Below, piece by piece: positions 1-41,739 of a DNA stretch of 64,000 bases (position 1 is the stretch's first letter; each line of letters starts with the position of its first letter). Origin of the DNA: a virus (Duplodnaviria; Caudoviricetes). The notes beneath the pieces were generated by a model. That model made no database searches. It was not told the DNA's origin and saw only the letters and a program-made list of their open reading frames with translations. Both the position numbers and the translations under genes were made by a program. Location: positions 1,114-65,113 of the IMG/VR virus record IMGVR_UViG_3300044631_000812; one strand, given 5' to 3'.

Positions 1-2856
1 GACTTTATAGATATTAACTACACTGTTGGCTACATATCTGACACAGTTACTTCAGAACCTAAACAGACATGGAGAAGTGATCGCGACTACGAGATTGGCA
101 TTGCATACTTGGATGATTACGGTCGAATGACTACCGTGCTTACGACTACAACTGATAACACAAGTAACAATCTATCTAACTCAGTATACATACCGCCAAC
201 CAATTCAAGCACAGCTAACTCATTACTTGTCAACATAAAAAACAAGGCACCTGAGTGGGCAACCGGATATCGATTCTTTGTAAAGCAATCTAAGACTGAA
301 TATTATAATATATTTCCAGTAACTTTTTTGGTATCTGGTTCTTACCGATATTTCTTGATTAATGAAGCAGACAGAGATAAGATTAAAGTAAATGGATATA
401 TTATATTCAAGTCTTCTGGTAATGGTCCTACACATTCAAACAAAAGATTTAAAGTTCTTGAGCTTGATCAAAAGGCTGCAAATGCTATTAATAGTGGTTC
501 ATTAGAAGGTCTTTACTTTAAGATTAAAGCTGATGCATCTGATACATTTATTAGCGCAACAAGTCAAGTGGTATTTAACTTTAACGGATCAGGTAGAGGT
601 CCTAAATTTATTGGATCTCCACTTGCAACAATTGATCCAGTTACGCAGAGAACAGCAAACGCAAGTATATCAAAAACATTAGCATACTATCACTTTAGTG
701 GTGATAATACTATACAAAATACTGGTCCTTCTGTCAATCTAATCAACATAAATTGTCAGACAGATGCAAGGTTAACTGTGCTAATAACTCCAAATAACAA
801 ATATAAAACAACTCTAACATTAGATCAATCGTCTTTCAGTGCTGAGGCAAATATCACTACATCACCTGTATCCATTACTATTGCAACCAACCAAACAGCA
901 AACCTGGTATTTCAACCTGGTACATACAACCCTGGAGATAGATTTGTATTTAACATAAGAGGAGTAGGAAGTAGAGCTGGAACACCTTCAGCTAGAAACA
1001 ACCCTAATTTCGGATTACCTGTAAACATAAATTCATTTAACAGAGATGAGTATGGAGGTGTTGCATTGTTGCAGGAACCTACAGGTAGCGTTATATATCC
1101 AGGTGCACAAATAGTAATAGATATTGAATATGACTGTGCTCCTGGAGATGGGTATAGAGCTAAAACTAATTCATTTACATCTACTAATTACTATACTAAT
1201 TTAGAAGAGTGGTTTTATGAGTCAGGTGCTTATTCAAGCTTTGTTCAATGGAAAGATGAAAACTCAACAAATAACATAGGATCAAAAGGAGTTACATTTA
1301 GAAACGGAATATCTTACAATAATGTTGGTTCCCAACTTTCAAATACCATAGTTCAAGTTCCTTTTTCTACACCTGGATCTAAATTATATATGTGTATACA
1401 AGGTTTTGGAGATGGATCTTTCAACCAAAAGAACGAAATAAAGGCATCTTTAAAAGTTACACAGACTCCATTAAATAATAAAATAACTGCCGAGACAGTT
1501 CCGGATAATGATGATGTAGATATATTCTACGAGATGAGCAGAACATATCCTGTTGATATTAATGGTAATCACATGGTTTTATGGAATTATGATAGATGTG
1601 TTGCTATTGGATCTGCTTTAAGATTAATTCAAGACGATAAAACACAACCTCATTATTTTAAAGATGGGCAGCAAGTATATATTACAGCAGCAAACATACC
1701 TGCAGCATTTTACACAATTACTGGTATTCCAGATAGATATACAATACAAATAAACTACGCAACAGCAACAGCAACCATCCCTGGTGGTGTTTCTGATAAC
1801 ATATTAGATAAAAACCAATCAGGAGTACTCAATCAAGCTGTTATTCAATTAAACAATATCGGCAACAAGAATTCAGACTATAACGCTTACTGCTATGGAA
1901 ATGGTGTTGAGTCTAACCGAATATTAGATGGATTCAATGAGCCATGGCTGAAGTACAGCCTGCGCGCTAGTGGTGTTATTGAGGATTATGAAGAGCAAAT
2001 AAAAGACACGTCGGTTACATATAGCGGCTTATATCGTTGGGATTCATCTATTAATAGATTGAATGAGTTCAACCTATCTCTTGCTAACTTCAAAAACCTA
2101 GACAAGAACTTTGGCACCGTCCAAAAACTTTACGCTAGAACAACTGACCTAGTGGTATTACACCAAGACAAAATAACTTCAGTTCTGTATGGCAAAAACT
2201 TATTGGTTGATGCCGTTGGTGGTGGATCAGTAGCCTCTGTGCCTGAAGTGCTTGGAACACAGATTGCCTTACCTTACGAGTTTGGTATATCATCAAATCC
2301 AGAGAGTTTTGCTGTATGGAGTGATCGAATGTACTTCTCTGATGCTAAGAGAGGTGTTGTTCTTCAAATGCAAGGCGATCAAGTAATGCAGATATCTCGA
2401 ATGGGTATGTCTGATTATTTTAGAGATTTAATGGCAAGCACGCCAAATATGGCTAAGCTTGGTGCATACGACCCATACAATCATAATTACGTGATTGCGT
2501 CTACAGATAGAAGAAATGTACCTTGCGATATACAGATTAATCCATATGCTGATTCTTTCCCTTACAATACAGCTGGAAGTCTTCAATATTTATTTGCACT
2601 ATCAGGTACAACAAGCTGGTCAATTACATTAATTAATAACGGATTTGGTACTAACTGGATTGAACTTCCTCCTTACTGTCAGACAGGTGTAGGTGCTCAA
2701 GATATATACGCAAGAATTCAAAATAACATCACTCTATCAAACAGAAGTGTTATTGTTAGAGTTGCATACTGTAACACATACGTAGACTACACATTAACTC
2801 AAGGTAGAACTAGAAAAATAGACTTTAATATTTTAACATTAGGCACAGATGGGTAA
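1..2856 (+). CDS. Tail stabilisation protein, central part (5' partial), with C-terminal BACON-like domain
   Basis: Frame 1 is open from position 1 (SDRDYEIGIAYLDDYGRMTT). Motifs GNGVESNRI, NRLNEFNLS..NFKNLD..FG.VQKL and YEFGISSNPESF recall tail stabilisation proteins of Bacteroidota podoviruses. The last ~80 aa (SWSI..NWI..G.G..N..R..V..TLTQ) are BACON-like. Confidence 0.75.
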   Translation, partial: DFIDINYTVGYISDTVTSEPKQTWRSDRDYEIGIAYLDDYGRMTTVLTTTTDNTSNNLSNSVYIPPTNSSTANSLLVNIKNKAPEWATGYRFFVKQSKTEYYNIFPVTFLVSGSYRYFLINEADRDKIKVNGYIIFKSSGNGPTHSNKRFKVLELDQKAANAINSGSLEGLYFKIKADASDTFISATSQVVFNFNGSGRGPKFIGSPLATIDPVTQRTANASISKTLAYYHFSGDNTIQNTGPSVNLININCQTDARLTVLITPNNKYKTTLTLDQSSFSAEANITTSPVSITIATNQTANLVFQPGTYNPGDRFVFNIRGVGSRAGTPSARNNPNFGLPVNINSFNRDEYGGVALLQEPTGSVIYPGAQIVIDIEYDCAPGDGYRAKTNSFTSTNYYTNLEEWFYESGAYSSFVQWKDENSTNNIGSKGVTFRNGISYNNVGSQLSNTIVQVPFSTPGSKLYMCIQGFGDGSFNQKNEIKASLKVTQTPLNNKITAETVPDNDDVDIFYEMSRTYPVDINGNHMVLWNYDRCVAIGSALRLIQDDKTQPHYFKDGQQVYITAANIPAAFYTITGIPDRYTIQINYATATATIPGGVSDNILDKNQSGVLNQAVIQLNNIGNKNSDYNAYCYGNGVESNRILDGFNEPWLKYSLRASGVIEDYEEQIKDTSVTYSGLYRWDSSINRLNEFNLSLANFKNLDKNFGTVQKLYARTTDLVVLHQDKITSVLYGKNLLVDAVGGGSVASVPEVLGTQIALPYEFGISSNPESFAVWSDRMYFSDAKRGVVLQMQGDQVMQISRMGMSDYFRDLMASTPNMAKLGAYDPYNHNYVIASTDRRNVPCDIQINPYADSFPYNTAGSLQYLFALSGTTSWSITLINNGFGTNWIELPPYCQTGVGAQDIYARIQNNITLSNRSVIVRVAYCNTYVDYTLTQGRTRKIDFNILTLGTDG

Positions 2857-5500
2857 AACTAAGCAGGCATTCAGCTACACAGGTAGCTCAACATACACAA
2901 TTGACAATGTGGTATTAAGTAGCAGCGCTATCGCTCTATTTGATACGTCCACAGGTGTCGGTGGCGTTGACTATATTCCATACGATGGGGCTACCGTCAC
3001 TGTGGTCGCTGGTGATGTTTTATCTGACTACCGACAGCTCGCACCAACTTTAAATAATAAGCTCTATTATTTGGTTTCAGACACTGCATACACAGCAGCT
3101 GACAAGACAACCATACTTAGCATAGCAACTGAAATACCGGTCATTTATTCGGCAGGAGTATTTACCGGCACATTTGTTTTCTTAAATCCAAATAACTATG
3201 AGTATGTATACTTGTTATGGGATTATGAGGATAAAATGGATACCGTTGCGTCATATAAAGGCGTAACCGATAGCCGAGCAATCGATATGCTTTTCGGGCC
3301 TAACATCGGGCGAGCTGGTATTAGTTTTAATACCGTTGACCCAGACCAACCAACAAGATATCAGATTGAATGGAACGGTGAGATTGTTGCGGATACTAAA
3401 TATGTCGGTTTAAATTCATCCGCAAACTACATAAAATTAGAAGCTGCAGGTATTCCCGCAGAAGATATTGGTCTTGTGGCTCCATACGATGGTCTTGTTA
3501 ATAATGGCACTGGCATTATTGAATTTTACAAAAATCTACCTGAAGGTGAAGCAAGTTTAATTGTATCTTCAGCAACTGCTAGTTCTACATGGATAGTAAA
3601 CAAGATTAATCCATATTTAACTCAGTTTTATATTGACCAAGATCCTGGAACAACTGCAAATGTATGCGCACAGTGTCCTGATGTCGCTATTTACCATAAT
3701 GGCATTGACGCTCTTCCAAACGTTGGAGATCAGTTGTTTACAACAAGCACAGGATCAGCAGTTTACGTTGGTGATGATTTTTTACATCTTATTGATACAA
3801 GATCATGCACTACTCCTCCAATATCAAACTTAAGTTATATTGAGATAAGCTCTACAGGTGAGGTTTTATCAAAACAAAGCTGTACATGTTCAGAGTTTGC
3901 GGTTCCATTTATTATTGCGGATCCAATTACAGCTAATACTAATACCTCAGAGAGTGTAACGATAGAGGTTATTAATAATCCTACTTCTTGGGTAGTTAGC
4001 TCAAGCACGTTACCCGATCAGGCAACTTTCTCAAATGGGACTATATATTTTGAAAATTGCCCTGCTGGTGTTTATTCAATAGAATTATCAGCATTAAATT
4101 GCGTAGGAAGAAGCTCATTAGTTACTATATCTGTAACAGTGTCAGACCTTGGCAACATGAAGCCTTTCTTAATTGACGTTGAGCAGTTTAAAGAATCTGG
4201 TAGAGATGCATGTCTAGTAATACCTACATTTACCTTAATGTACTTTGAGGGTGATGGTTACATACCAAACCTAATCGATACTGTATTCTACGACTCAGAA
4301 GGCTTACGTCCATTTATGGGAGGTAAGAAATGGTACTATATAAATGACTCAAACTACAGCATTCAGATTGATCAAGAAGGAACCATTATTGGAAAAAGTG
4401 TGTGTGTTGGAGCCACTACAACGACTACAACGACAAGCACAACAACACTACCTTCAGGCACCTATTTTAATGCAACATCATGCGTTGATAACACATTAAG
4501 TGTTGTACTAAGAAATTCATTAGGAACATCAATTGCAACAAATTTAGTTGTTAAAACAACAGACGGTAACTGTTGGAGAGTAACCGGATCAAGAACCGCA
4601 GCAACGCCATATTATAATGTTGTTACACCGATAGTTACATACGCTGACTGCACTGCATGTACTGGGACTACCACAACTACAACTACTAGCACAACCACAA
4701 CGTCAACGCCCGTCACTGGTTTTGACTTTGATGTTACGCCATTCAACACAGACCTATTGGCATGCACGTCCACACCGTCATATGTAACATACTATCACAC
4801 AGGCACATTAGCAGTAAACAGTTTTGTTTACACCAACTCAGGCGCCACAACACTATTTAATGGGGGGTTCTTGTGGTATTTAGTTAGAAAGTCAGGTGTG
4901 ACATATGCTTGCCTAGTCGCTGACACAGGTCAGATTCTAAAGCTATTGGCTTGCTCAGGTGTAACCACTACAACAACCACAACCACATTGCCTTTCTATT
5001 ACTACAATGGAACTAAATGTGTGGGCGGTGCTGCTGTACTAATGAGATACCAAGGCTTTGCTCCTTTAAGTTTGCCTAATTTCATAAAAGACAGTAACGG
5101 CGATTGCATAACAATCACGTCAGTAGCTTCACCTGGAGCGCAAAATGGTGACATATACTACACTTATGGAAGCTGTTCAGAGTGCGCTGCAACTACAACT
5201 ACTACAACAACTACTACAACTACAACAACGTCAACTACAACAACATCAACTACCACAACGACGATTGCTCCGTTGACGTCAATCACGCTGTCATACTCTT
5301 CTTCACAATCAACAGTTTGTACTGTTCTTGATATTGATAATTATTATGTAAATGGTGCAATTGGTGTCCCTGGAAATAATATCTTTACAAACCTTTTAGG
5401 CACTATTTCAGCGCCTGCTGGTTGGTACTTGAATTTAATTATTAATGTCGCGTATGAATGGGACGGATCAGACTGGACCGGAGCGACTAACGTTTGTTAA
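2849..5500 (+). CDS. Putative virion protein with Ig-like domain, Cys-rich modules and four poly-Thr (mucin-like) tracts
   Basis: 883-aa ORF overlapping both neighbours; Thr/Ser tracts near 4415, 4667, 4964 and 5192; CxxC pairs; He_PIG-like segment NNPTSW...LP...GVYSIELSALN. Confidence 0.75.
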   Translation: MGKTKQAFSYTGSSTYTIDNVVLSSSAIALFDTSTGVGGVDYIPYDGATVTVVAGDVLSDYRQLAPTLNNKLYYLVSDTAYTAADKTTILSIATEIPVIYSAGVFTGTFVFLNPNNYEYVYLLWDYEDKMDTVASYKGVTDSRAIDMLFGPNIGRAGISFNTVDPDQPTRYQIEWNGEIVADTKYVGLNSSANYIKLEAAGIPAEDIGLVAPYDGLVNNGTGIIEFYKNLPEGEASLIVSSATASSTWIVNKINPYLTQFYIDQDPGTTANVCAQCPDVAIYHNGIDALPNVGDQLFTTSTGSAVYVGDDFLHLIDTRSCTTPPISNLSYIEISSTGEVLSKQSCTCSEFAVPFIIADPITANTNTSESVTIEVINNPTSWVVSSSTLPDQATFSNGTIYFENCPAGVYSIELSALNCVGRSSLVTISVTVSDLGNMKPFLIDVEQFKESGRDACLVIPTFTLMYFEGDGYIPNLIDTVFYDSEGLRPFMGGKKWYYINDSNYSIQIDQEGTIIGKSVCVGATTTTTTTSTTTLPSGTYFNATSCVDNTLSVVLRNSLGTSIATNLVVKTTDGNCWRVTGSRTAATPYYNVVTPIVTYADCTACTGTTTTTTTSTTTTSTPVTGFDFDVTPFNTDLLACTSTPSYVTYYHTGTLAVNSFVYTNSGATTLFNGGFLWYLVRKSGVTYACLVADTGQILKLLACSGVTTTTTTTTLPFYYYNGTKCVGGAAVLMRYQGFAPLSLPNFIKDSNGDCITITSVASPGAQNGDIYYTYGSCSECAATTTTTTTTTTTTTSTTTTSTTTTTIAPLTSITLSYSSSQSTVCTVLDIDNYYVNGAIGVPGNNIFTNLLGTISAPAGWYLNLIINVAYEWDGSDWTGATNVC

Positions 5501-6417
5501 TGAAGACACTTAGGATGTTGTCAGCGCAACCTGCGCTTGACTACTACGCTTGGCAGATTGAGGTGTGCATACATAACTTTGCATCTCTCGGTTATAAGAA
5601 CATTGATATTGTAGCTGGATATCAGGATGAGATACCAGAGTCTTGGAATAAGTTATACCAAACTTATAGTGATATTGCTAGGTTCTTTTTCTATAAAGAC
5701 ACTATGGGAGATTGTAACTACCCGCCTGCTATTCAAGCTCATTTACTTCAGAAGCATTTCAAGAAACATCCAGAGTTAAAAAACGATGTGTTCTTTTTTC
5801 ATGACGCTGATTTTGTTTTCACTAAGTATATGGACTTTACTCCATACCTAGAGGGAGATATCTGGTACTTCTCAGACACTATCTCATATATAGGATATGA
5901 CTATATCATGAGCAAGGGTGAAGAAGTATTAAAGGCCATGTGTAACCAAGTTGGAATATCACGTAAACTAATTGAGTTTAATAAGAATAAAAGTGGTGGC
6001 GCTCAGAAGCTCATGAAGAATCTAACCTCACACTATTGGGGAAAAGTAGAGCAAGATAGCAAGGACTTATACAACCTACTGACTGGTCTTCAACATGTTA
6101 AGAAGGAAGGTGATCCGAACGGTATACAGGCATGGACTGCTAGTATGTGGGCCGAACTTTGGAACGCTTGGTTTTTCGGTCATCATGTTGAAGTACCAAA
6201 AGACTTTGATTTTGCTTGGGCAACCTGCCCTGCAGATCGATGGGATGATCTGTACTTCTTTCATAACGCCGGTGTTATAAATTCAACGCAAGGCATGTTT
6301 CACAAGGCTTCATATATGGATAGCCTTCCATTTGAGACAGACCTTCAGTTAGATCCAAACAGATGCTCATACAAGTATTATGAGATGATCAAGAGTATGA
6401 AAAGTTGCTTGGTCTAA
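5494..6417 (+). CDS. Putative GT-A glycosyltransferase, HPAT/SERGT1-like protein O-glycosyltransferase
   Basis: DxD motif in FFFHDADFVF; the order of YYAWQ, NYPPAI and WTASMW resembles plant peptidyl-Ser galactosyl-/Hyp arabinosyltransferases (recalled, not searched). Confidence 0.65.
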   Translation: MLMKTLRMLSAQPALDYYAWQIEVCIHNFASLGYKNIDIVAGYQDEIPESWNKLYQTYSDIARFFFYKDTMGDCNYPPAIQAHLLQKHFKKHPELKNDVFFFHDADFVFTKYMDFTPYLEGDIWYFSDTISYIGYDYIMSKGEEVLKAMCNQVGISRKLIEFNKNKSGGAQKLMKNLTSHYWGKVEQDSKDLYNLLTGLQHVKKEGDPNGIQAWTASMWAELWNAWFFGHHVEVPKDFDFAWATCPADRWDDLYFFHNAGVINSTQGMFHKASYMDSLPFETDLQLDPNRCSYKYYEMIKSMKSCLV

Positions 6418-7212: not shown

Positions 7213-7617
7213 ATGGAAGTTAGGTATCTTGATGACCGTGACTACGATGTTTTAGCGTCATGGTGGAAAGATTGGAGATGGACTCCACCGCCTAAAGATA
7301 TGCTGCCTCAAAATGGAAGAGGTGGATTGATGATTACAAAGGATGGTGAAGACATTTGCGCTGGATTCATCTATTTTACCAACTCGGCTACTGCTTGGGT
7401 TGAATTTATTGTATCTAACTTTCAATATAAAAACAAAGACCGAAAGGACGCTATTCTAATTTTGATTAACGCACTATCGGAGGTTGCTAAGGAAAATGGA
7501 TGCAAGTATGTATACACTTCACTTAAAAACCAAAGCTTAATAAACTACTATGCAGAGTGCGGATTCCAAAAGGGATCTGAGAACTGCACTGAAATGATAA
7601 AGATATGGCAGCAGTAA
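7213..7617 (+). CDS. GNAT-fold acetyltransferase-like protein
   Basis: 134 aa with ICAGFIY, AKENGCKYV and INYYAECGF GNAT pattern; lies between tail and ejection genes. Confidence 0.6.
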   Translation: MEVRYLDDRDYDVLASWWKDWRWTPPPKDMLPQNGRGGLMITKDGEDICAGFIYFTNSATAWVEFIVSNFQYKNKDRKDAILILINALSEVAKENGCKYVYTSLKNQSLINYYAECGFQKGSENCTEMIKIWQQ

Positions 7618-8336
7618 CATCAACATTAGTGGCATTAGGAGGAATTGGCCTTAGTGCCGCCCAGGCTATCAAGGCAAACAAAGATATGAGACAGGCAGCA
7701 AGAGCTAGTGATCTATCTAAACAGCAACTCAAGCAAATCAAAGAGACCAATCCATTCAAGGCTGTTCAGACACCTATGCTTGGCTTTGAGTTGGCACAAG
7801 AACAACAGAACCAAAGGACAGCTCAGCTTGCTCAAATGGTTACGGGTCTTGGTGCTGAAGGTGCTATTGGAGGCATCGGCCAGTTGGCTCAAGCAGGTAA
7901 CGAGCAAGATGTGCAATTAGCCGCTCAAGCTAATCAAACACAATTCCAAAGAGATATGGCACAAGCTGAGGCTGAGTCAGGTATTCAAGCCCGTAAAGCT
8001 GAGAGAGATTGGATGGCTGGTATTGGTGATATTCAAGAACAGAACATGAGACGAGCAGAGGCAGCTGCTAATAGAAATGCTGCAATATCAGGGGCTTTTA
8101 GTTCTTTAGGTACAGCTGCTTTAGGTGTTGATGAAATGATAGACCTTTACCGTAAAAACAAATCAATACCTAATACCAAAGCAGGTGCCGGAGGAGGTGT
8201 AAACTGGGATTATTTATTTGGAAATAAACCAAACTATCTAAACTTACAACAGCCTCAAAATATGGTTACTGGATCTAACATAAATAATCCTAACGCGGTG
8301 TTAGGTAATCAAGGAAACCAAGTACAACTACCATAA
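7605..8336 (+). CDS. Putative internal virion/ejection protein
   Basis: Ala/Gly/Gln-rich helical protein with hydrophobic N-terminus, in the typical podovirus position. Confidence 0.55.
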   Translation: MAAVTSTLVALGGIGLSAAQAIKANKDMRQAARASDLSKQQLKQIKETNPFKAVQTPMLGFELAQEQQNQRTAQLAQMVTGLGAEGAIGGIGQLAQAGNEQDVQLAAQANQTQFQRDMAQAEAESGIQARKAERDWMAGIGDIQEQNMRRAEAAANRNAAISGAFSSLGTAALGVDEMIDLYRKNKSIPNTKAGAGGGVNWDYLFGNKPNYLNLQQPQNMVTGSNINNPNAVLGNQGNQVQLP

Positions 8337-9772
8337 TGGCAATAAATCAAAACATATTTGGGTACATGCCAGTCGAATCTGTCGACTGGGCAAAGCAAAT
8401 GAATAGCCTTTCAGGTACTATATCTGGTATTGGTGAGCGTCGTGAAAAAGAGAAAGAATATCTAGATCAGTTAAAGACTGACAATATAAAGACTATTCAA
8501 CAATCGGACGCTAATTCAAGTCAGAATTTTGGGCAGATGATGCTTGGGGCTACTCAGGATGGTGTCAGTTTAATGAAGCAATGGAATGATGCCCTTAAAA
8601 GAGGTGAGCTAGATCCGAAGCAGTATAAGCAAAATATAAATAACTTCATGGAAAGCTGGGGTACTTTAGGCAATAGCATTAAGAGTTTTGATGCTAAGAA
8701 TGCCGAGCTTCAGAAAAGACTTCAAGACGGAACTGCATCAAAGGCATCTGTAGAGGCCGCTCAATATTTTGCTAAAATGGGGGATATTAAAAACATGAAA
8801 GTTTTTATCGACCCATCTAATGGCACCGTTAGCACAGGTAGATTAGATCCTAGAACCGGTCAAGTTATTCCTGATACTATTGACAGCGCAAAAACAAGTG
8901 CTGATCCAAGTAATGCTGTCTTTGATAAAATTAATTTAGCTGAGGCTGTGAGTCAAACCACAAAACTATGGAAACCATATGTTACTGAAAATGGCATTAC
9001 TACAGTAAGCGACTTAACTAAAAGAGAAGGATTTAGTTATGCTGTATCAGATCTTGTTGGTTCACTAACTAGCAACGATAGGATGACACTTAGTATACTA
9101 CAAGATAATACAAATGGTAACTATCAGACATACTATACAGAAGGTGATAGAACAGATTTATTGGTTGAAGCTGTCAATAGGGAGAATCAATCAAGAAGAT
9201 ATAGAGGCGAAAAGCCATTATCTGGTGGTGAATTAGATTCATTTATTAATGATGCGGGTAATAAACTTATAGCCATGAAGAAAGATCCTTCTGGTGTATA
9301 TCAACCTGTAATAACTGAGCTACACAAACAAGATGCTGAAAAAGCAGTTATCAACTCTATAGAGATGCAATTAGAATTTAAGTCCACGCAAGACGAGATT
9401 ACTTTCGGGCGTGGTGGTACTAGTTCAGAGATACCTAAGGAGAAGTTCAACACATTGTCTGAATATGTAGTTAACAATTGGGGATCTGCCTCAGCACTAA
9501 ATAATCAAGCTAGACCTGGTTATAAGTTTAAGTGGGATTCAGGAACTCTAAATGTATACAAAGAAGAATCTGATGGTAGAGGTGGAATTGACTTGACACT
9601 AATTGGGCCAATACCTTCACAGGTAGAGCTTGGTAAATATTTAGGAATAACAAACACTCAGCTAGATGACTGGAAAGCTGCTGTTGAGAGAGCTAAAGGT
9701 AAAAAACCAGCAGCTCCTGTTAAACCGAAGCCAAAGCCAAAGACTGGTGGATCAGGTGTTAAATGGGGTTAA
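8336..9772 (+). CDS. Putative internal virion protein
   Basis: 478-aa ORF, translationally coupled (TAATG), just before the giant gene. Confidence 0.5.
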   Translation: MAINQNIFGYMPVESVDWAKQMNSLSGTISGIGERREKEKEYLDQLKTDNIKTIQQSDANSSQNFGQMMLGATQDGVSLMKQWNDALKRGELDPKQYKQNINNFMESWGTLGNSIKSFDAKNAELQKRLQDGTASKASVEAAQYFAKMGDIKNMKVFIDPSNGTVSTGRLDPRTGQVIPDTIDSAKTSADPSNAVFDKINLAEAVSQTTKLWKPYVTENGITTVSDLTKREGFSYAVSDLVGSLTSNDRMTLSILQDNTNGNYQTYYTEGDRTDLLVEAVNRENQSRRYRGEKPLSGGELDSFINDAGNKLIAMKKDPSGVYQPVITELHKQDAEKAVINSIEMQLEFKSTQDEITFGRGGTSSEIPKEKFNTLSEYVVNNWGSASALNNQARPGYKFKWDSGTLNVYKEESDGRGGIDLTLIGPIPSQVELGKYLGITNTQLDDWKAAVERAKGKKPAAPVKPKPKPKTGGSGVKWG

Positions 9773-9792: not shown

Positions 9793-12700
9793 ATGCCAAA
9801 CGATAATCTTAAGAAGTACTATTCCTATTTAAAGTCAAACGGCGCTGATGTAGCTCCCACATATGATTCATTTGTATCTACATTAAATAATGAAGAAAAT
9901 GCTAAGAAATACTACTCTTATTTACAGAGTAATGGATTCGACACGCCACCTTCATACGACCAATTTGCCAACACTTTGGGTATAAAAAAAAAAGATCCTA
10001 CGGCATCTGGATCAGGAACGTCTTCATCGGGAAGATCATCCAACACAACAACAAAGCCTACGGCATCTTCATATTCAAAAGGTGAAATCTTTACTGGTTA
10101 TCCAGGTAAGGAAGAGAAGCCATATCAATTTAAGGATGGTAAGTGGTATGAGGAGGCTCCTGTAAAAGTATATGGTCAGGAGGCTAAGTATGTGCAGATT
10201 CAAGATCCAAATAGAATTGGTAATCTCAATAAGCAGTTTAAAAAGGACGCATCTTTATCCCAACAAGAGGAGGTTTTTAATAACTACGATGACGAAAAAT
10301 CTGACAACCAATACCGTATAAAAGACGGACAATGGCAGCGAATGACTCCTGGCAGTAAGTGGCATACCATTCAGAATGAGGGATCAATCAATGCGTTAAA
10401 TAATCGATACGGCAAAAGCGTAAGCACTAGAGTTTCAACCACAACTACAGTAAAGCCTGTAAAGTTTGATGACATTAACTCAGACTTTATGGCAAAAACA
10501 GAAGAGGATGCTATAAAAAAACTAACTGAAAAATATGGCAAGCTTGGCTTTGAGTTCTCTGAAGAGGGTTTATTTTTAAAGGATCAAATTAGAGTAAAAA
10601 CTAAAGATGGTAGTAAGGATCAGGTATTTGAGTTTGACGAAAAAAATCCTGAGCAAGCACGTGAATTACGTGCATTCTTAGAAGCAAATGCCTCTAAGCC
10701 GTATAGTGAAAGTTTTGATAAGGCGTTATCTGCTCTTAATAAAGGAGATGTAAGGCCAAGTTATCAGATTGGTGGTAGTACACTTGCTTTTGGAACTGAT
10801 CAAGATGGATTAGAAAAAGAGTCTGCTGCTATTAGAGGAAAGAACTTGCTATCAAGCGATTTTCAGTCACAGTTTAAAAAGCTACCATTTGATGAACAAA
10901 AAGAACTTATTCAAAAGCAAATTGCTAGTGGATCTCTTCCTTCAAGTGATGTTCAATCTTTTTACAAAAGTGAAGCATATAAAGACTATAAGAAAAAGAA
11001 AATAGCTGGAGATCAACAAGTTAAAGCAAAGCAAGACCAAATATTTGATGACTATCAGTACGCCTTAGCTACTAAAGATCCGGCCAAAATAAAGGAAGCG
11101 AAGGCTAAAATTAATGCATACTATACCGATGATATTATACAGGATAATGTTAAGACGTATAACATGAAGCTTAATGATCTTGAACAGTCACAAAAAAAGA
11201 TACTACAAGATAGGAAAGTATACGATGATGAGGTAAATAGATTTAATGAGCTAGCCCAAAGCGGCAATATGACTCAAGAACAATATGATGCTCAAAAAAA
11301 AATACTAGATAGTCAAGCTGAATCATTAGAAACAAGAGCTCAGAACTTTGTGATGCAAAGAAAAGAAATTCAAGCATCACAAAATAAGCTAAACTTGGTG
11401 GCTGGTAAGTACGTAGCTGCTAAAGAAAAGGAAGGTAACTTTGGTGGATTTGTAGTTAACAAGGTATTGAGTGGTATATCAATGACATTCGCTGAACCAT
11501 TCGCTGGATTAGAGGCTACTCAAAATAGATATGATTACTTATCTCCAGAAGAAAAAGCTTACTACAAGTCAATTAAATATAACGGAAAGAATCTTACTAA
11601 AGATCAGATTGAAAATCTACTTGACAATCAGGCTGTATTAAAGGCAAAGAACCAAGCGAAAGAAAATATTATTGATGTACTTGGATCTGAAGGTACCACT
11701 CTTGAGTACATGAAGTCTGGAGATAGAGGGTTTATTACACAAGCAATAGGCGGTGTTCTTGAATCTCTTCCTGCAATGGCAACTGGTGTAGCTGGAAAAG
11801 CAGCTGGTTTTGTAGGTCTTGCGGCACAAGCTTATAGTGGGATTGAAGAGGAGATGCTTAGCGACCCTGACTTCCAGTACACTTCTGCAGGTGATCGTGC
11901 TATTATTGCGATACCATATGCAGCAGGAATGGGCGTACTTGAGAGTGTAGGTTTACAAAACTTAGTTAAGGGAGACTCATTCTTAGGTAAAGTTATGATG
12001 GATGTTGCTCTTAAGTCAGCTAAGAAATTAGGAGCTAATGCAACTAAAGAAGCACTTGAAAGAGTTGCAGCCAAAGAGGTTGAAAGTCTTTTAGCTAAGG
12101 GGTTAATTCGTGTAACACAGGCAGGCGTTGCTGAATTTGAAACCGGATTTACGCAAGCATTGGTATTAGACCAAGGATTAAAAAATGTTTACAACTACAT
12201 TCAACAAAGCGGCCTAACTGAAGAGCAAAAGAAAAATCTAACTCAAGGTGAGTACTTTGATACAGCCGATGGGTTTAAAGAATTAGCATCCCAAACATTT
12301 GAGGATGGTGTTGCTGAAATGATTGGCGGTGTTGTTATGGGATCTGTAGGAACTCTATTTCAAGCTGTAACAAAGGGTAATATTTCTTTGTACAATGATG
12401 ATGACGTTAAGTTCTTAAAAGATGTTGTCGCAGATAGCAACTTTAAGAAACTATACGTAGCATCTATGAAGACGCAGATGCTAGATGGCAAAATCACTAA
12501 GTCAAAAGCGCAGCAGAACTTAGACAACTTAAATGAGATTGAGGCTGCATTTGATATGATGCCAGATGGTTTGTCTACAGCAGATATGAACAGATCGCTT
12601 TCTTTGATTACAGAGAGAGCTCAACTAACAAAAGAAAAAGCAGGGAAAGACCCTAACCTTGTTGCACCATTAGAGGCGCGCATCAAGGCCATAAATGAAG

Positions 12701-15700
12701 AACTAACACAAATTGGAGAAAATGCCGTTCAAAAGCAAACAACAGGTGAAGTATCTGTACAGCCAGGAACCAAAGGTGGCAGAGAAGTGGAGGAAAGAAA
12801 ACCCGAAACAGGACTTAAAGAAACTACCCAAAAAGGTAAAGAAGAAGTAGATCAGTACATTGCTGATATGGGTGCTGAAGCCCGTATTGGAAATACCATC
12901 AATCCGGTTATGGAAAAGATGGCTAATACTGAGTACATCAACGACAATGATATTGATAACGCCATTGAGGCAATTTTTAATGAAGTCGAGAGTTTAGATA
13001 AGTCAGACTACAGTGCAGAGACAAAAGCTGCATTGTCTGAGAAGCTACTAAACATCGCTGAAAAATTAGATAACTATGAATTTAGAACAAAGACTGAAAC
13101 TGTCGCAACTACCAAAGCAGGCGCAGCTACAACTACTAGAAGAACTTCTGAAGCGGTCCAAAAAATCAGAGCCGAAAAATACTTCGATGGAGTCCAAGCC
13201 ACAGTCAATGGACAAGAAGTAACTCTTAAGGATAATAAAGGACGAGTAGAGGCTCAGATGCCAAACGGTGAGGTGGTTGTGTTAGACACACCTACCATGG
13301 AGATTGCCGAGGATGGATTTGAGTTTGATGACAATGGCGCACTTCAGGCTGTCACAGTAACCGATAGACTTGGCAATACAGCTAAACTTACTGGTGATCA
13401 GGCACTTGACTTTGCTATCCGTGATCGTGAGAACAAGCTTGGTGTTGTTGAGCAGGCTGAGTTTGATACTGTATACCAAGAGGTAGAGAAGAAGTATATC
13501 AAGGAGACGCCGGCACCTCAAGTAGCAGCTAAAAAACAAGCCGCTGTTGAAGAACAGCAGCCTGTAGTTGAAGAAGAAGGCCAACCAATTGCAGAACCTA
13601 ACGAATCCAATCGCTTTACCGAGCGAAATGCCAAGGTTATGGCCGTCAAGTTTCCTAGTAAAAAAGGAATTGTAAGGGCAGCTCTGAACATAATCAAAGC
13701 CTTGCCTGGTGTAAAAATTTACTTGCATGAGGACTCTAATCAGTATGCTCAAGAAGTGAGTGCTAGAGTTAAAGAATCAATAAAAATAAAAAAAGATCTT
13801 GATGAAGCAGGTTCTTACATTGATGGTGAGATCCATATTGACATGTCAAAGGCTGATTTAGTTACGTTACTACATGAGGCATTCCATCATGCATTTTTGA
13901 CACTTGGTGTTAAGAACGGAATGTTTATTGATCTAGCAAAAGGTCTTCGTTCATTAATAAAAAATAAAGAAGCACTTGACTATTTAGATGAATTTATTGC
14001 AAGCTACTCAGAAGAGACAGCAGAATTACAAGCAGAAGAATTTGCTGTAGAGTTAGGAGCTATACTTGCTAACAATCGAGAAGAGCTTACAACTACAAAG
14101 CTTACTCAGTTCAAGGCATTGATCAACCGAATAGCAAAGAAAATTGGCCTAGGAATGGTATTTTCTTCAGCAGCAAATAGCAAAGAAGCGGCTGACTTTA
14201 TTAATGCTATTACTCGTGGATTAACTACTGGTGATATCGTTGAAGGTAAATTCAAGCCAACTAAGACAGGAAAAGCTAAAAGGCAAGCAGTAACTATTAT
14301 GGAGGGAAGGGAATCCATGAAGAAGTTTGGATTAACTCCTGGTAAAAATGTTACAAGAAAAATTGGAGAAGCTCTTGAGGCTAGACAAAGAGCAAAATAT
14401 GGAACAATAGCTCAAAAAGATAATTCTCCTGAAGCTAGAAAAAAAATATCAAACTGGATGGTTGATGAAGTTAAATACTTTGTTCAATTAATGGGTGATA
14501 AAAGCGGCAAAGGATGGTATGGTGAGCTATATCAGAATTCATTAGATGCTATGGCTAAGGTTTTCCCTGAAATGAAAACTGATCAGAATGCTAGAGATTT
14601 ATTTACAATGCTTGTAGCAATCACATCTGATGGCCAGAAAGTTATGAGTAATTTTAGATTAGCTGCTGCTGCCTACGACTATTATAAGAAAAACGGCGTA
14701 ATGCCGAATACTTTACCTGGGCAACGTGTTGCTTCTTTTGAGGCAAATCTCAAACGAATAAACGAATTACTTGTTGAATATAACGGAGATATAGCAACTA
14801 TCAAAGAAAAATTGATGGAAGTTAAATCTATTCAAGAAATTAATCAAGAAAGAAAAAAAGAAGGATTAGAACCTCTTTCTACTAATTGGCCTGTTAGCTT
14901 TAAGGCTCCATTTGCAGCATCTGTATTTGGTCCAAAATTAGGAATGTTTTATTCCAATCTATCAGGTAATGAATCGTATCCAACACTTGATAGATGGTGG
15001 TCTAGAACTTTTAATAGATATAGAGGCACATTAATTCCTGGATTAAAGTCAGGATTTAGTGCAAAAGGAGAGGCTATTGGACTTGATAGATTTAAACAAC
15101 TGCTTGGAAATCCGGGGATGAGCAATGAAGAAGCTCTTTTAGCAGCAAAATCTTATAGGGACTCTTATGCTGCTAAGGGATATAAATCAGGAACTGATGT
15201 TGAAAAAGCGGCTAACACTATATATAAGACAGCATTTGAGAACTTAAATGATGCCCCATTTACTAAAAATGATCGTCAATTTATGTATGATACAATATCT
15301 GATGCTGTAAATAAATTAAACAAGCAGGGATATGACTTAAGTATTGCTGACGTTCAGGCTATACTTTGGTATTTTGAAAAGAATCTCTACAAAACGTTAG
15401 GTGTTCAAGCAAAAATAGAAGGTATAAGTTATGAAGATGCAGCTAATTACACATACGATAAATGGAAAGAATCTGGAAACAAGTTTGACTATAAGATTAA
15501 CGAATCAGAGGAAGGTCAAGCTGTAGAAGATGCTGATGAGGATATACAGGAAGAAATAATTCAGCGAAAAAAACAATTAAAAATAAAAGAAAATAACAAA
15601 AAACTCCCTAACTTAGCGCAAAATGAAAAAGGAAACATACAATCCGAACGAACCGGAGACGGAAGAACAGCACGGCCTGCAATCAGCAAAAATGCGCCTC

Positions 15701-18700
15701 TCGAAGGTGCTCCAACAATCCAAGGGGCAACCGGACCAGACCCAGAACTTGTATCAGTTGCTGAAAAATATGCAGATGAAAACAATATTGATCTCAAAAG
15801 ACAAGGAGAGTACGTCGAATTAGACGAAGAAAGAGCTAAGAGATTAGCCGATGCTTACGAGCAGATGGCTGACGACCCTCAAAATCCAAAAGTCAAAGAT
15901 GCATATGCTGAATTAATAAAACAAACTAAAGCTCAATACCAAGCATTGGTAGATGCGGGCTATAAGTTTTGGTTTGTTGATTTTAATAATCCTGAGAATA
16001 TTGATTACATATCATCTCCGTATAACGCCATGCGTGATTTGCGCCAAAACAAACAGATGGGCGTTTTCCCAACAGAACAAGGTTTTGGCTCAAATGAAAA
16101 TATAGATGTATCTAAAAATCCTTTATTAGAGGACACAGGTATCATGTGGCCATCAGGTGGATTAAATGGAAAAATGAAAATTGTTACAGCAAATGATTTA
16201 TTTAGAGCTGTACATGACGCATTCGGGCATGGTCTTGAGGGGGCTGGATTTAGAGCAAGAGGCGAAGAGAATGCATGGCAAGCTCATTCAAGATTGTACA
16301 CAGGAAGTGCTATAGGTGCTATGACGAGTGAAACAAGAGGTCAAAACTCTTGGGTAAACTACGGACCTAAAGGAGAGCAAAATAGAACTGCGAGTGGTGA
16401 AGATACTATTTTTGCTGATCAAAAAGTAGGTCTTATGCCTAAATGGACATGGACTGAAGGTCGCGCAGGTGATATGGAAGCCCCTAAACGAAAGAAGCAA
16501 TTGAAGCCTAAAATTTTAGGCGTGAAGCCTACAGTGGTGATTGTGAACGATGAGCAGAAGGCCTTGGTTGATCAGATCAAGCTTGAAGTCAGAGCACAAC
16601 GCGAGCAGAAGAAGGCATACAAGCAAGTGCTTGCAGACATCTCAGCTAGAGTCACAGCGCTTAAGAGTAAAGGTAATATATCTGTCAAGCAGTTTGACGC
16701 CATCATGAAGAACTTAAAGCGCTTAAACTTTGATAACGAAACAAAGGTCCAGGCGTTTATTGACTACGTGTCAAGAGCCCTTGCTAATGCAGACTACGTA
16801 GAGAAAGTAGCTAAAGCTCAGTCACTTAATAAAAGAATCAAGGCTAGTCTAAAAGGCACAGCTAATCCATTTGCTGTATTGGCTAAGATGTTCACGACAT
16901 TGGACTCACGATGGGTACAGAACATTGACGACCATATTGCAGTGGCTCAGATGATCTTAGATGGCGTTAAGCCTAGCGCAGCTAGACGTGGTGTCCTTAC
17001 ACTTAAAGAGGAACCAGATCTACAAGTTATTGCTGAATATATTGACGCTGAGCAGACGCTTCAAACGCAGATGTTGCTTGATAGGCTTAAGTTTAGATAT
17101 GAAATGATTACAGGTAATCCATCAGACAAGTTAACAGCTGATGAGATGATTACTCTTCTAGATGCATTAAAGCCAAATGAAGACCAAACTGATAAGATAA
17201 AAGAACAGATAGATCAAAAGTTTGCTGAGTATGCATCTATGTTATCTGAAGAAGATCCACAAGTTATTGTTGATGCTGTAAATGTAGATACAGACATGAT
17301 AAGTTGGAGAGAGTCTGTTAAGATACTAGATGCACTTGACACATACTTTACTAATGGGTCATTAGCTGGTATTGACTCGCTTATGGGTTCATATCAAGGT
17401 ATTGTTAATGTGAAGAGATTTAAGGATAAATCTAATCCAATGACAATAGCTCTTTCTAAAAATTTGGCAAAACTTAAATTTGAAAACTTTACTGGGTTCA
17501 CAAGAATACTAGAAAGAAAATTCAGAAGTCTAGAAAAATCTCTTGCTTATGAAAAAGCGAGTGGAATTAATGATATTGTTACTGGTGTTAATAGAGCTGA
17601 CTTTGAAGCCGCTAAGAAACAAAAGGAATATATTAAAAAGTTTGAAAAGGTAAAAGATTTCAACTCAAATGAGAATATATATGAGAGAGGTGTAATTGCA
17701 GATCTTATTAGAACAAACGCAGGTATTGATCAGGATGCTGAATTTGATCGATTAGTAAACATATTGATAGACTCTAAAGACATGTTGCTTGCAAGCCAAG
17801 ATCAAACTAAAGTTGAGATGGGTAGGTTGTGTGACAAAGTTTTCAAAAAACTTGGTCTTTATGAGGATGGAATTACAATTGACGACGTACTATCTAAGGC
17901 TACTAAAACAAATGTAGATGCGGTAGAATTTGTTGTAGATATGTTTGCAGATAAGTATGACTTACTTAGCGACACAGCGCTAGGTGTGTATAACGTTATG
18001 CTTGGTCAAGACATAAACTACACACCAAAGATATACATGAATATTAGAAATGAGAAGTCTGTTGACTCTGATCCGTTGTCAGGAAAAGACGCGTTCAGTC
18101 TTGGAGCTTATTCAAACTTGTATGCAGGTTTTAATAAAAATGAGGCAGGAGTTTTAATGCCTATTACAAGACCAAAGGACTTAAAAGATGCTGGAAAATA
18201 TATTGATTTGAACTTTGACAACAATATGTTTAGATCTTATCGCTTGGCATTAACTGATGCATACACTGCAAAATCAATACGTCAGTTAAATTCATTCTTC
18301 AACACAAAAGAAAATGAAGACATATTAGCATCCGAAAAAGACTTTGATGTAATTAAGGCAGCACTAAGTGACTACATTAATACAGCAAAGGGGAAGAACT
18401 TTATTGGTAAGATAACTTCACAAGAGGTAGATAAGTTTATAAACCTAATCAGTACGTTTGGATCTGTAAGAGCGCTCGTTGGTGTTGGACAGGCATTTAG
18501 CCAGTTTGCTTCTGGTATGTCAAACACAATAATTAATGCAGGTGAGCATATTAGACCATCCGACTTTACAAAAAAGGCATTTGATTTCATGAACAGATCA
18601 GGACAGCCTATTGCAAACGTAGGTGAGAATGACATTCTAATATCACTAGCCAACTTTGATAAGTCTATTGAGAGAGCGACTGTTGGTAAAAATATGGCAG

Positions 18701-40170: not shown

Positions 40171-41739
40171 ATGGTAGTAAAACATGTACATTTAGGCGAT
40201 GAAGGTCGCCAAAAGCTCATTAAAGGCATTAAAACGATCGCTGGAGCAGTAAAAAGCACACTCGGTGCGCGAGGACGGACAGTCCTAATTGAATCAGAGC
40301 ATCACGTTGGTGGCATTACAGTAACAAAGGACGGTGTGACGGTCGCTAAGTCGATCAACCTCTATGACCCGGTTGAGAACTTAGCCGTCATGATGATGCG
40401 ACAGGCTGCTGAGAAGACGGCTACTGTTGCTGGTGATGGGACAACGACCAGTATTGTCATCGCTGAGGCTATTGTGGATGCAGCCACAGACATACTGTCT
40501 GAGGATAAAAACGTAACCGAGGTCATCCGTGAGATCAATAGCATTACAACAAATGTTGTAACGCACTTGACCAAACGAGCCAAAAAACTCTCAGGCAAGA
40601 AGCTAAAAGACGTTGCGTCAATAAGTGCCAACAATGACACCACTATTGGTGGTATGATCGCTGACGCGTTCAGTGAGGTCAAGATGGTATCTGTTGAGAA
40701 CAGTAAGGACCACAACACATATGTTGAGGTGATCAAGGGGATTAAGGCTGACCGAGGTTGGACTAGTCGCCACTTCATCACTGACTACAAGCGTCAGGAG
40801 GCCATCCTAGAGAACCCATACGTCTTAATCACTGACCAAGAGATTAACAACCTACTCAACATTGAGAAGGTCCTACAGCATGTTGTAGCGCAAAATAAGT
40901 CACTACTCATCATTGGTGAGATGACACCTGCTGCACTTAACACCCTTAATATAAACGTCGCTCAAGGCAAGATCAAGGCTTGCCATATCATGCCGCCAAG
41001 CTTTGGCTACCGTCAGAAAGACCTGCTTGAAGACCTAGCGATCGTATTGGACGGCACATACTTTAGTGAGGACACTGGTGATGACCTATCTCTTATTGAC
41101 GTGGCACATCTTGGTCGTTGCTCTAAGGTGATCGTTGGTAAGGACAATACGATCTTTATGCCCTATGCTAGCTCTCAAGATAGCATAGACGCCCGAATTG
41201 CCGACATCAACGAGACCATATTCGAAGGCATAACAAAAGAAGAGCTTGACAACCGTAAAGAGCGAGCGGCCAACCTATCGGGTGGTGTTGCTGTGATACA
41301 CGTTGGAGCGCTCAGTGACATTGAGCAGAAGGAGAAGCGCGACCGCATCGACGACGCTGTATGCGCTGTTGAGGCTGCATTAGAGGAGGGAATCCTTCCT
41401 GGTGGTGGTGTTGCTTTGTATGAGTATGCGATTACACACCTACGCGGTAAGATTGGCGCTGCTGAGCAAATTATGTTCAGAGCCATAACATCTCCAATGT
41501 GGCAAATACTTGTGAACGCTGGCAAAGACGCTCAAGAGATCATGGACGGCATCCTACCGTTCCCTAACGAGGGCTACGACGTCAAAGGAGAGCAGTACGG
41601 TGACATGATCAAGCTTGGCATCATTGACCCGGCTAAAGTCACTAAGAACGCTTTATTGAACGCTGTGTCGGTAGCTACGACGATCATGAGCACAAACGCA
41701 ATCATTACAAATATCAGAGCAGATGAAAGTATTAAATAA
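40171..41739 (+). CDS. groEL: Chaperonin GroEL
   Basis: VTKDGVTVAK, AGDGTTT, EEGILPGGG, GIIDPAKV; lacks the GGM tail. Confidence 0.95.
   Translation: MVVKHVHLGDEGRQKLIKGIKTIAGAVKSTLGARGRTVLIESEHHVGGITVTKDGVTVAKSINLYDPVENLAVMMMRQAAEKTATVAGDGTTTSIVIAEAIVDAATDILSEDKNVTEVIREINSITTNVVTHLTKRAKKLSGKKLKDVASISANNDTTIGGMIADAFSEVKMVSVENSKDHNTYVEVIKGIKADRGWTSRHFITDYKRQEAILENPYVLITDQEINNLLNIEKVLQHVVAQNKSLLIIGEMTPAALNTLNINVAQGKIKACHIMPPSFGYRQKDLLEDLAIVLDGTYFSEDTGDDLSLIDVAHLGRCSKVIVGKDNTIFMPYASSQDSIDARIADINETIFEGITKEELDNRKERAANLSGGVAVIHVGALSDIEQKEKRDRIDDAVCAVEAALEEGILPGGGVALYEYAITHLRGKIGAAEQIMFRAITSPMWQILVNAGKDAQEIMDGILPFPNEGYDVKGEQYGDMIKLGIIDPAKVTKNALLNAVSVATTIMSTNAIITNIRADESIK

Follow-up and report, generated by a model that had tools for sequence, protein, structure and literature searches.

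Does a phage that carries homopolymeric threonine tracts on one of its tail-region proteins also encode the enzyme that adds sugars to them? Two overlapping genes in the virus record IMGVR_UViG_3300044631_000812 raise this question. We analysed bases 1114-65113 of this 65,113-bp record (completeness 100%, CheckV); this whole stretch of 64,000 nucleotides (nt) is called the window below, and coordinates refer to it. The upstream gene encodes P0001, a protein of 883 amino acids (aa) with four poly-Thr/Ser tracts, and the downstream gene encodes P0002, a protein with a DxD motif. An earlier note on this DNA had proposed that the two form a virion O-glycosylation system. The best reading of the results reported here is that P0002 is probably a dedicated cytoplasmic O-glycosyltransferase for the poly-Thr tracts of virion proteins. 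The main features of the pair are the following:

2849..5500, + strand: P0001 (883 aa), the proposed acceptor (open reading frame (ORF) and translation; phrog_21885, DUF3244 and AlphaFold2 (AF2) model)
5498..5502, + strand: TAATG junction, in which the P0001 stop and the probable P0002 start share 1 nt (sequence; Atlas record start; homologue lengths)
5500..6417, + strand: P0002, predicted soluble GT-A-fold glycosyltransferase of phrog_4417 (305 aa from the ATG at 5500; the ORF from TTG, 5494-6417, has 307 aa)
5800..5811, + strand: HDAD motif, H103 D104 A105 D106 (TTG numbering), a DxD for metal and nucleotide sugar, located after beta strand 99-102 as expected in a GT-A enzyme
6262..6306, + strand: C-terminal block H257-N-A-G260 ... 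K271, with H257, G260 and K271 invariant in a 55-sequence alignment

The sequence at the junction is TGT TAA TG AAG, with the P0001 stop codon TAA at 5498-5500 and an ATG at 5500-5502. The overlap of the two genes described in the earlier note was present, but the start at 5494 (TTG) and the length of 307 aa given there are probably not the true ones. The true start is most likely the ATG at 5500 (305 aa, 1-nt overlap), because the ESM Atlas record begins at that Met and the close homologues are 300-309 aa long. The 1-nt TAATG overlap suggests translational coupling of P0001 and P0002. Neither a signal peptide nor a transmembrane segment was detected in P0001 or P0002.

P0002 is predicted to fold as a GT-A glycosyltransferase

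P0002 had no match in Pfam at E ≤ 1. It matched phrog_4417 ('unknown function') over its full length (E 2.3e-67, residues 7-303 on profile positions 2-292 of 293). This enzyme family comprises 801 representative clusters (50% identity; E ≤ 1e-3) in a library of 1.84 billion proteins, and it is present in at least 590 viral loci. A tblastn search of P0002 against 50,697 phage records returned 75 isolate records at E ≤ 1e-5, mostly Enterococcus, Lactobacillus, Staphylococcus, Lactococcus and Clostridium phages; the best match was a Chryseobacterium phage (37% identity).

The AF2 model of P0002, built on the 55-sequence alignment, had a predicted local distance difference test score (pLDDT) of 96.0 and a predicted template modelling score of 0.93, and the modelled protein folds with high confidence as a GT-A glycosyltransferase, with a single Rossmann-like alpha/beta/alpha domain of the kind that binds nucleotide sugars. 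Foldseek gave at least 356 matches in the PDB at E ≤ 1e-3. All 46 among the matches listed were glycosyltransferases, led by WbbM, UGGT, XXYLT1, GlyE, glycogenin, LgtC and GT6 enzymes, and nearly all of them belong to GT-A families. An independent structural search with VIA-align ranked GT8-type retaining enzymes at the top (Z 14.7 over 234 aa for LgtC, 14.6 and 14.2 for glycogenin, 14.2 for AgtA, 14.1 for WbbM residues 278-569, which are its GT8 domain, 13.5 for LARGE1 and 12.8 for GlyE), and also found the chlorovirus PBCV-1 A64R capsid glycosyltransferase (Z 11.4) and Mimivirus R699 (Z 10.8). According to the earlier note, the lack of a GT-A fold would have refuted its proposal; the fold was found with confidence and with a conserved DxD.

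The candidate active-site residues were strongly conserved. D106 was invariant and D104 was present in at least 90% of the 55 sequences, and the equivalent columns (D105 and D107) were invariant in 88 fused forms of the family. The C-terminal block from H257 to K271 resembles the HxxGxxK metal and diphosphate site of GT8 enzymes. The four motifs singled out in the earlier note exist and lie on conserved columns (YYAWQ 17-21, YPPAI 76-80, HDAD 103-106, WTASMW 214-219). From fold and motifs, P0002 is very probably an active GT-A glycosyltransferase.

Sequence searches against PDB chains gave nothing significant for P0001 or P0002. The profile of the 55 sequences matched only TALE repeats among PDB chains; no stretch was significant, a single segment of 31 residues had been summed across the repeats, and these matches were judged spurious.

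Might the enzyme transfer a sugar phosphate instead of a sugar? A sugar-1-phosphate transferase, similar to Stealth or GlcNAc (N-acetylglucosamine)-1-phosphotransferase proteins, would give Thr-O-P-sugar, as in Dictyostelium or Leishmania. The fold matches did include the catalytic domains of GlcNAc-1-phosphotransferase and CpsY (Z 10.0, 9.7 and 9.5), the 55-sequence profile gave a weak GNPTAB match in the PDB (E 0.58), and one of the 55 members gave a weak Stealth_CR2 match (E 0.079). However, these Z values are well below those of the GT8-type enzymes (14-14.7), the sequence signals are not significant, and the DxD with the C-terminal His/Lys pattern fits GT8-like enzymes. We regard phosphate-linked transfer as quite improbable.

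P0001 is a modular protein with four conserved poly-Thr linkers

The 883-aa ORF with four Thr/Ser tracts, the longest of 24 residues at 5192-5263, was found exactly as the earlier note had described it. P0001 consists of a beta-rich N-terminal region followed by five small Cys-containing beta modules with four poly-Thr linkers between them; phrog_21885 matched in three stretches and DUF3244 at aa 363-415. From the first Cys-containing module to the C-terminus, the order is:

4160..4414, + strand: Cys-containing beta module before tract 1, approximately aa 438-522 (best phrog_21885 stretch at aa 449-518; C455 and C519 invariant)
4415..4447, + strand: poly-Thr/Ser tract 1, TTTTTTTSTTT, aa 523-533 (pLDDT <50 at 522-533; position kept in 21 orthologues)
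4448..4666, + strand: small beta module between tracts 1 and 2, aa 534-606 (invariant Cys 545, 575, 601 and 604)
4667..4708, + strand: poly-Thr/Ser tract 2, aa 607-620 (pLDDT <50 at 606-619; conserved)
4709..4963, + strand: beta module between tracts 2 and 3, aa 621-705 (phrog_21885-like type)
4964..4987, + strand: poly-Thr tract 3, T8, aa 706-713 (pLDDT <50 at 705-714; conserved)
4988..5191, + strand: small beta module between tracts 3 and 4, aa 714-781 (invariant Cys 724, 753, 776 and 779)
5192..5263, + strand: poly-Thr/Ser tract 4, 24 residues, aa 782-805 (pLDDT <50 at 783-806; length kept in relatives)
5264..5497, + strand: C-terminal beta module, aa 806-883 (conserved Cys at its end)

The AF2 model of P0001 (mean pLDDT 77.6) consisted of all-beta domains, and its four internal segments with pLDDT <50 were exactly the four tracts, lying between confidently folded small beta modules. 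The modelled architecture is that of beads on a string. A fold search with the whole chain returned generic matches to multi-immunoglobulin, adhesin and S-layer ectodomain structures (template modelling score approximately 0.1), and uncharacterised modular phage proteins, some of them from Flavobacterium and Cellulophaga phages.

The tracts appear to be maintained at the protein level, as the earlier note had argued from their mixed ACT/ACA/ACG/ACC codons. The codon counts (ACA 24, ACT 15, ACG 7, ACC 6, TCA 3 and AGC 2) include no long run of a single codon. Tract 4 measures 22-25 residues in 12 relatives, with the synonymous codons scrambled. The tracts and their flanking Cys keep their position in an alignment of 21 orthologues (39-79% identity) while the modules diverge. 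Mixed codons, their scrambling in relatives and the conserved positions together argue for selection on the protein. The Cys-rich nature of the modules was also borne out, with 22 Cys in P0001 and many of those between the tracts invariant. Among the window's ORFs of at least 100 aa, P0001 is alone in carrying such tracts; seven consecutive ACN codons matched 11 times in the 65,113-bp genome, always inside the P0001 gene, and the reversed control pattern matched 0 times.

The enzyme and poly-Thr appear to be gained and lost together

The strongest evidence for a direct relation between enzyme and substrate came from the presence and absence of both in one family of tail-tube proteins. A profile made from 12 poly-Thr tail-tube proteins retrieved 80 viral loci with homologues of the same major-tail-protein family. 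Nine loci with less than 1200 nt downstream and no enzyme in sight (L296, L299, L310, L324, L329, L330, L333, L343 and L363, all without a tail) were dropped, leaving 71. A C-terminal poly-Thr tail together with an enzyme gene immediately downstream was found in 16/71, and neither was found in 54/71, where the tail-tube proteins end in '...YPxxxPEGA'. A tail without the enzyme was never seen (0/71). The only enzyme without a tail on the tail-tube protein (1/71, L364) lies directly after a 96-aa ORF that has two poly-Thr tracts. The association over the 71 loci was highly significant in a Fisher test that ignores kinship among the loci (p = 5e-15). On a quick maximum-likelihood tree of the tail-tube proteins, calculated after trimming of the last 22 residues, 11 changes are required to account for the joint trait, and well-supported branches force at least 4 of these; tag and enzyme thus appear to have been gained or lost together repeatedly.

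We also analysed the neighbourhood of the enzyme in the 80 closest viral loci. Of the 79 evaluable loci, 72 had tracts in the neighbouring same-strand ORF upstream, compared to tracts in 15/519 of the other same-strand ORFs (at least 100 aa). The enzymes of the 80 loci fall into 10 clusters at 60% identity, and a tract neighbour was found in all 10. The 72/79 count is not made of independent cases and largely reflects one inherited cassette, because after masking of the tracts 74 of 80 upstream proteins (those of the 79 loci and the window's own) joined a single family through their Cys modules.

Independent support came from phages whose poly-Thr proteins are quite different from P0001. Five of the 75 isolate records were inspected, and the gene directly upstream of the enzyme had poly-Thr in 5/5. 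In the Enterococcus phage phiFL1A this gene encodes the major tail protein, whose C-terminus is TTTTTSTTTTTTSSTTTTTTT. Poly-Thr genes likewise lie directly before the enzyme in Lactococcus phage 1706 (orf13), Clostridium phage phiCTP1 (gp18) and Chryseobacterium phage MA9V-3. Lactobacillus phage PLE3 (L083, 2450-6938) has Thr tails or tracts on three virion proteins: the major capsid and major tail proteins both end in TTTTTTTSK, and PLE3_8, directly followed by the enzyme gene, has several T6-T12 tracts.

A further 80 loci from bacterial genomes were sorted by record title into Firmicutes prophages (30), chromosomal Bacteroidota (38) and a remainder of other, metagenome-assembled or short records (12). 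Tract ORFs were present in 29/30, 2/38 and 7/12 of them, respectively. The tract lies within 12 residues of the C-terminus in 60/60 Firmicutes tract ORFs. Six of these (in L141, L135 and L144) were compared with PHROGs and proved to be major head (phrog_10) and major tail proteins (phrog_88, 117 and 14018) and phrog_749. The linkage of P0002 homologues to Thr-rich genes, which the earlier note had suggested examining, is strong and extends across unrelated phage groups. From this co-occurrence, P0001 would be a virion protein and an acceptor. The acceptor of P0002 is probably the set of poly-Thr tracts of P0001, and in other phages those of head and tail proteins.

Fused forms and chromosomal homologues

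Fused forms (at least 380 aa) made up 89 of 150 diverse family representatives. In the 88 that were scanned, the second glycosyltransferase domain gave 22 family matches (GT7C 10, GT2 5, GT6 3, GT2_2 3 and GT29 1), plus a weak one to GT25. One family representative is fused to a methyltransferase. In P0124, a metagenomic representative of 658 aa, the P0002-like domain is joined to radical SAM and SPASM domains, as is typical for maturases of ribosomally synthesised and post-translationally modified peptides (RiPPs). Judged by their sequences, these fusions place the P0002-like domain in pathways of glycan addition and peptide tailoring.

The chromosomal homologues of Bacteroidota (Chitinophaga, Pedobacter, Sphingobacterium and others) lie outside prophages and are mostly two-domain proteins of approximately 450-770 aa. 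A GT7C-type second domain was found in both of the homologues scanned (L099 and L111). Their Pfam-annotated neighbours (L099:4116-8995 and L111:1884-10050) include a LanB dehydratase (E 2e-131), LanC-like cyclases, a HlyD-type secretion protein and GT11/GT2 genes. A single-sequence search with these LanB and LanC proteins detected one or both in 16/38 Bacteroidota loci (L099, L111 and 14 others among L093-L165) vs. 0/30 Firmicutes prophage loci. The lanthipeptide-type neighbourhoods and the radical-SAM/SPASM fusion point to Ser/Thr in peptides as the substrates of the entire family and argue against polysaccharide enzymes. The gene content also suggests glycosylated lanthipeptides in Chitinophaga, Pedobacter and their relatives.

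These data bear on a further explanation, namely that P0002 is an inactive GT-A-fold protein that serves low-complexity Thr tracts either as a chaperone of assembly or as a minor structural partner. The position of its gene within structural operons, beside and apparently translationally coupled to the presumed partner, would suit such a role, as would the lack of a curated glycosyltransferase match. The DxD aspartates, His257 and Lys271 are (nearly) invariant across 55 to 150 highly diverged sequences, as in an active site, and the fusions to further glycosyltransferase domains and RiPP enzymes indicate enzymatic pathways. An inactive P0002 is consequently very improbable.

Poly-Thr without the enzyme, and the enzyme without poly-Thr

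In a converse test, 80 viral loci were chosen solely for 12 consecutive Thr codons; their flanks were uneven in length and several contigs came from giant viruses. The Thr-frame tract ORF was present in 64/80 of these loci, and a P0002-family gene was found in the fetched stretch of only 6/64, always immediately downstream. Since 58/64 tract loci had no enzyme, poly-Thr linkers are widespread without it and may work unmodified. Conversely, the enzyme was found without a tract ORF in its flanks in 7/79 viral loci and 1/30 Firmicutes loci. Besides the kinship and tree limits given with the counts above, these numbers weigh against glycosylation of poly-Thr by P0002, as do the following points. 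The tracts of P0001 are internal linkers and not C-terminal tails, so acceptor presentation differs from that of the Firmicutes proteins. P0002 shares only approximately 8-10% identity with its structural neighbours, and no curated glycosyltransferase family hidden Markov model matches it. The GT8 model PF01501 had 0 matches in the genome at E ≤ 10, while 6/14 control genomes matched. Finally, sugar transfer by any member of the phrog_4417 family is a computational prediction.

A rival explanation is that P0002 is a true glycosyltransferase with another acceptor, which might be phage DNA, a small molecule, a lipid-linked intermediate or a glycan of the host envelope. The poly-Thr segments would then be unmodified flexible linkers, and the genes would travel together for another reason; for example, the Cys modules might bind a glycan made by the enzyme. 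The 58/64 poly-Thr loci without the enzyme and the 7/79 enzyme loci without a tract neighbour agree with it, the oligosaccharide and polysaccharide glycosyltransferases LgtC and WbbM are among the top structural neighbours, and many family members carry a second glycosyltransferase, as is usual in glycan-chain synthesis. However, that tail and enzyme come and go together in one major-tail-protein family (16 with both, 0 with the tail only and 54 with neither) is hard to explain in this way. The Firmicutes tract proteins are unrelated to each other (head, tail tube and phrog_749), and the tract is common to all of them with no lectin module. The enzyme gene lies within late structural operons and not among DNA-metabolism or lysogenic-conversion genes, and the cellular homologues lie in lanthipeptide clusters (16/38) and not in polysaccharide loci. 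We consider another acceptor unlikely, and glycosylation of the poly-Thr tracts by P0002 remains the preferred reading.

Ten genes downstream of enzyme-less tract ORFs were sampled; one was a GT2 (15-nt gap, E 7.7e-8) and one a weak GT1_4 match (E 2.4e-4), next to the poly-Thr ORFs L239:4243-5067 (-) and L234:5738-6817 (-). The poly-Thr tag may be served by several enzyme families.

A viral contig, L372 (4338-9162), has four consecutive Thr/Ser-tract ORFs (286, 572, 261 and 106 aa) in a row broken by a 359-aa ORF without a Pfam match; no P0002-family gene was found in the fetched stretch.

Comparison with known glycosylation systems

To our knowledge, only some actinobacteriophages have so far been shown to glycosylate their particles with enzymes of their own. 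For mycobacteriophages (Che8 and others), Freeman et al. 2023 (Cell Host Microbe) are said to have found that phage-encoded glycosyltransferases decorate capsid and tail-tube subunits with glycans at their C-termini, and reportedly saw little evidence for virion glycosylation in phages outside the actinobacteriophages. The Firmicutes branch described here is similar in that its enzyme also goes with C-terminal tails, carried there by major head and tail proteins. The enzymes seem to differ: judged by organism name, the 75 tblastn records (E ≤ 1e-5) include none from Mycobacterium, with 6 named only 'Bacteriophage'. The acceptors differ, with the Che8 capsid protein ending in ...NKTGS and the tail tube in ...YSDGS, both without poly-Thr, and with the proposed acceptor tracts of P0001 being internal linkers of a modular protein. 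The hosts are Actinobacteria there, and Firmicutes and those of Bacteroidota-type aquatic phages here. The Che8 glycosyltransferase genes presumably lie outside the structural operon. What is new relative to known phage virion glycosylation would be the enzyme family and the very simple acceptor signature.

GT8-type retaining enzymes (LgtC, glycogenin, AgtA, the WbbM C-terminal domain and GlyE) gave the best structural matches (Z 12.8-14.7 over 211-244 residues) and share with P0002 the DxD after the central beta strand and the conserved C-terminal His/Lys. Several of them act on proteins, namely glycogenin, AgtA on Skp1 and GlyE on serine-rich-repeat adhesins. They are unlike P0002 in that PF01501 finds nothing in the genome and identity is very low (approximately 8-10%). 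Since the nearest folds are retaining enzymes, the linkage formed by P0002 would probably be alpha.

Plant HPAT (GT95) and SERGT1 (GT96) glycosylate repeats rich in hydroxy-amino acids, and the earlier note had read a likeness to them in the P0002 motifs. Faint traces of such a likeness were found: the HPAT model PF23452 matched 1/55 family members (E 1.3e-4), and in one ESM Atlas feature-neighbour cluster 10% of the members carry HPAT. P0002 itself and the other 54 relatives had no such match, nor did the 88 fused relatives or two homologue-bearing bacterial genomes. The HPAT and DUF7164 models also found nothing in the phage's own genome, a weakly informative absence since they match no control genome. 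The plant enzymes are Golgi membrane proteins, whereas P0002 is predicted to be soluble. On these comparisons, kinship of P0002 to GT95/GT96 is at most remote.

The glycosylation of serine-rich-repeat adhesins in streptococci and staphylococci likewise uses dedicated cytoplasmic transferases encoded beside a low-complexity, hydroxy-amino-acid surface fibre, and its GlyE is a structural neighbour of P0002 (Z 12.8). In that system the initiating enzyme is GT-B (GtfA/B), the acceptors are Ser-rich dipeptide repeats and export is by accessory Sec. Here, by contrast, homopolymeric Thr in a predicted phage particle protein is partnered by just one GT-A enzyme. PBCV-1 A64R and other capsid or fibril glycosyltransferases of giant viruses are likewise GT-A enzymes; the virus itself encodes them, and they glycosylate its structural proteins in the cytoplasm. 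They belong to eukaryotic viruses, however, have acceptors that are not known to be poly-Thr, and show no detectable sequence relation to P0002. Tailoring glycosyltransferases of RiPPs (lanthipeptides, glycocins) offer a further parallel, as the Bacteroidota homologues beside LanB/LanC would act on Ser/Thr-rich peptides; unlike P0002, these homologues are fusions of two domains (approximately 500-590 aa), the second of GT7C type, and a poly-Thr neighbour occurs in only 2/38 of their loci. By analogy, the logic of the proposed system would most resemble the cytoplasmic glycosylation of serine-rich-repeat adhesins and mucin-type O-glycosylation.

In the literature search, no paper was found that ties the enzyme family or poly-Thr tracts to phage glycosylation, the search covering sources other than subscription journals and supplements. 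In the passages seen, PMC12619734 and PMC13313380 mention virion glycosylation, both citing Freeman 2023; the passages seen of PMC12801897, PMC9430571 and PMC6316719 do not mention it.

Genome and locus setting

Gene content and gene order fit a crAss-like podovirus. The genome has a terminase, a portal, a major-capsid-like protein, a protein with the crAss muzzle C-terminal domain, a cargo-protein-like ORF and a 3405-aa ORF. The P0001 and P0002 genes are flanked by a phrog_14478 'virion structural protein' on one side and the muzzle-domain protein on the other, which makes the tail-region location given in the earlier note plausible. The genes are tightly packed, and the start of P0001 is overlapped by the stop of the gene upstream (ATGGGTAA).

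The GT8, GT2 and GT1 Pfam models had 0 matches in the whole genome, and P0002 is consequently the sole transferase recognisable there. The ORF at 8336-9772 (478 aa) was considered as a second transferase on account of a weak Nucleotid_trans match in Pfam (E 0.03) and was rejected; its Atlas neighbours were clusters similar to crAss cargo protein 2 (score 0.90) and the PDB search gave nothing. By these neighbours, it probably encodes an ejected cargo protein rather than a second transferase.

Other genes of the window were as follows:

7213-7617: small GNAT-family acetyltransferase, two genes 3' of P0002 and within the structural block (Pfam E 1.6e-4; phrog_17252 E 1e-51)
9793-20010: 3405-aa ORF without a Pfam match at E ≤ 1e-3, at a position where crAss-like phages put giant virion RNA polymerase or cargo proteins
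40171-41739: phage-encoded GroEL-type chaperonin (phrog_5725, E 3e-125, full length)
52114-55320: large terminase of 1068 aa with an intein-like insert (Hom_end-associated Hint at aa 296-368 and homing endonuclease/LAGLIDADG at aa 483-561, with terminase matches on both sides)

Proposed mechanism and meaning

We propose that P0002 is a soluble, cytoplasmic, metal-dependent (DxD) GT-A enzyme, which would be co-translated with P0001 via the TAATG junction. Before the virion is assembled or while assembly proceeds, it would transfer sugar from a nucleotide-sugar donor, probably uridine diphosphate (UDP)-hexose or UDP-N-acetylhexosamine, to the hydroxyls of the four poly-Thr linkers. P0001, encoded in the tail and structural block, would string together small beta modules that are able to form disulfides. 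Once densely O-glycosylated, the disordered linkers between them would become mucin-like spacers, stiff, extended and resistant to proteases, and would hold the modules out from the particle. In Firmicutes siphophages, the same enzyme family would act on the short C-terminal poly-Thr tails of major capsid and tail-tube proteins, and the whole particle would be coated with glycans.

We lean slightly towards a broader generalisation, in which phrog_4417 and poly-Thr form a portable 'tag plus writer' module. Homopolymeric Thr would be recognised as such, the module would have been repeatedly gained or lost as a unit in phages, crAss-like ones among them, whose hosts belong to at least two bacterial phyla, and it would coat capsids, tail tubes and fibres; its ancestry would be shared with lanthipeptide-tailoring glycosyltransferases. 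Were this the case, virion glycosylation would be common outside the actinobacteriophages, and poly-Thr would be a minimal genetically encodable glyco-tag.

Members of the enzyme family are found in phages of dairy, gut, aquatic and clinical-isolate origin, a crAss-like lineage among them, and carriers are already in culture (phiFL1A, PLE3, 1706, phiCTP1 and MA9V-3), which makes the proposal directly testable. If it is true, this large uncharacterised family marks a second, mechanistically distinct system of virion glycosylation. The interactions of particles with mucus, proteases, antibodies and host surfaces would be affected, anomalous masses of major capsid and tail proteins would be explained, and thousands of 'hypothetical proteins' would gain an annotation. 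The pair would also provide a compact tag and enzyme for making defined O-glycoproteins in bacteria.

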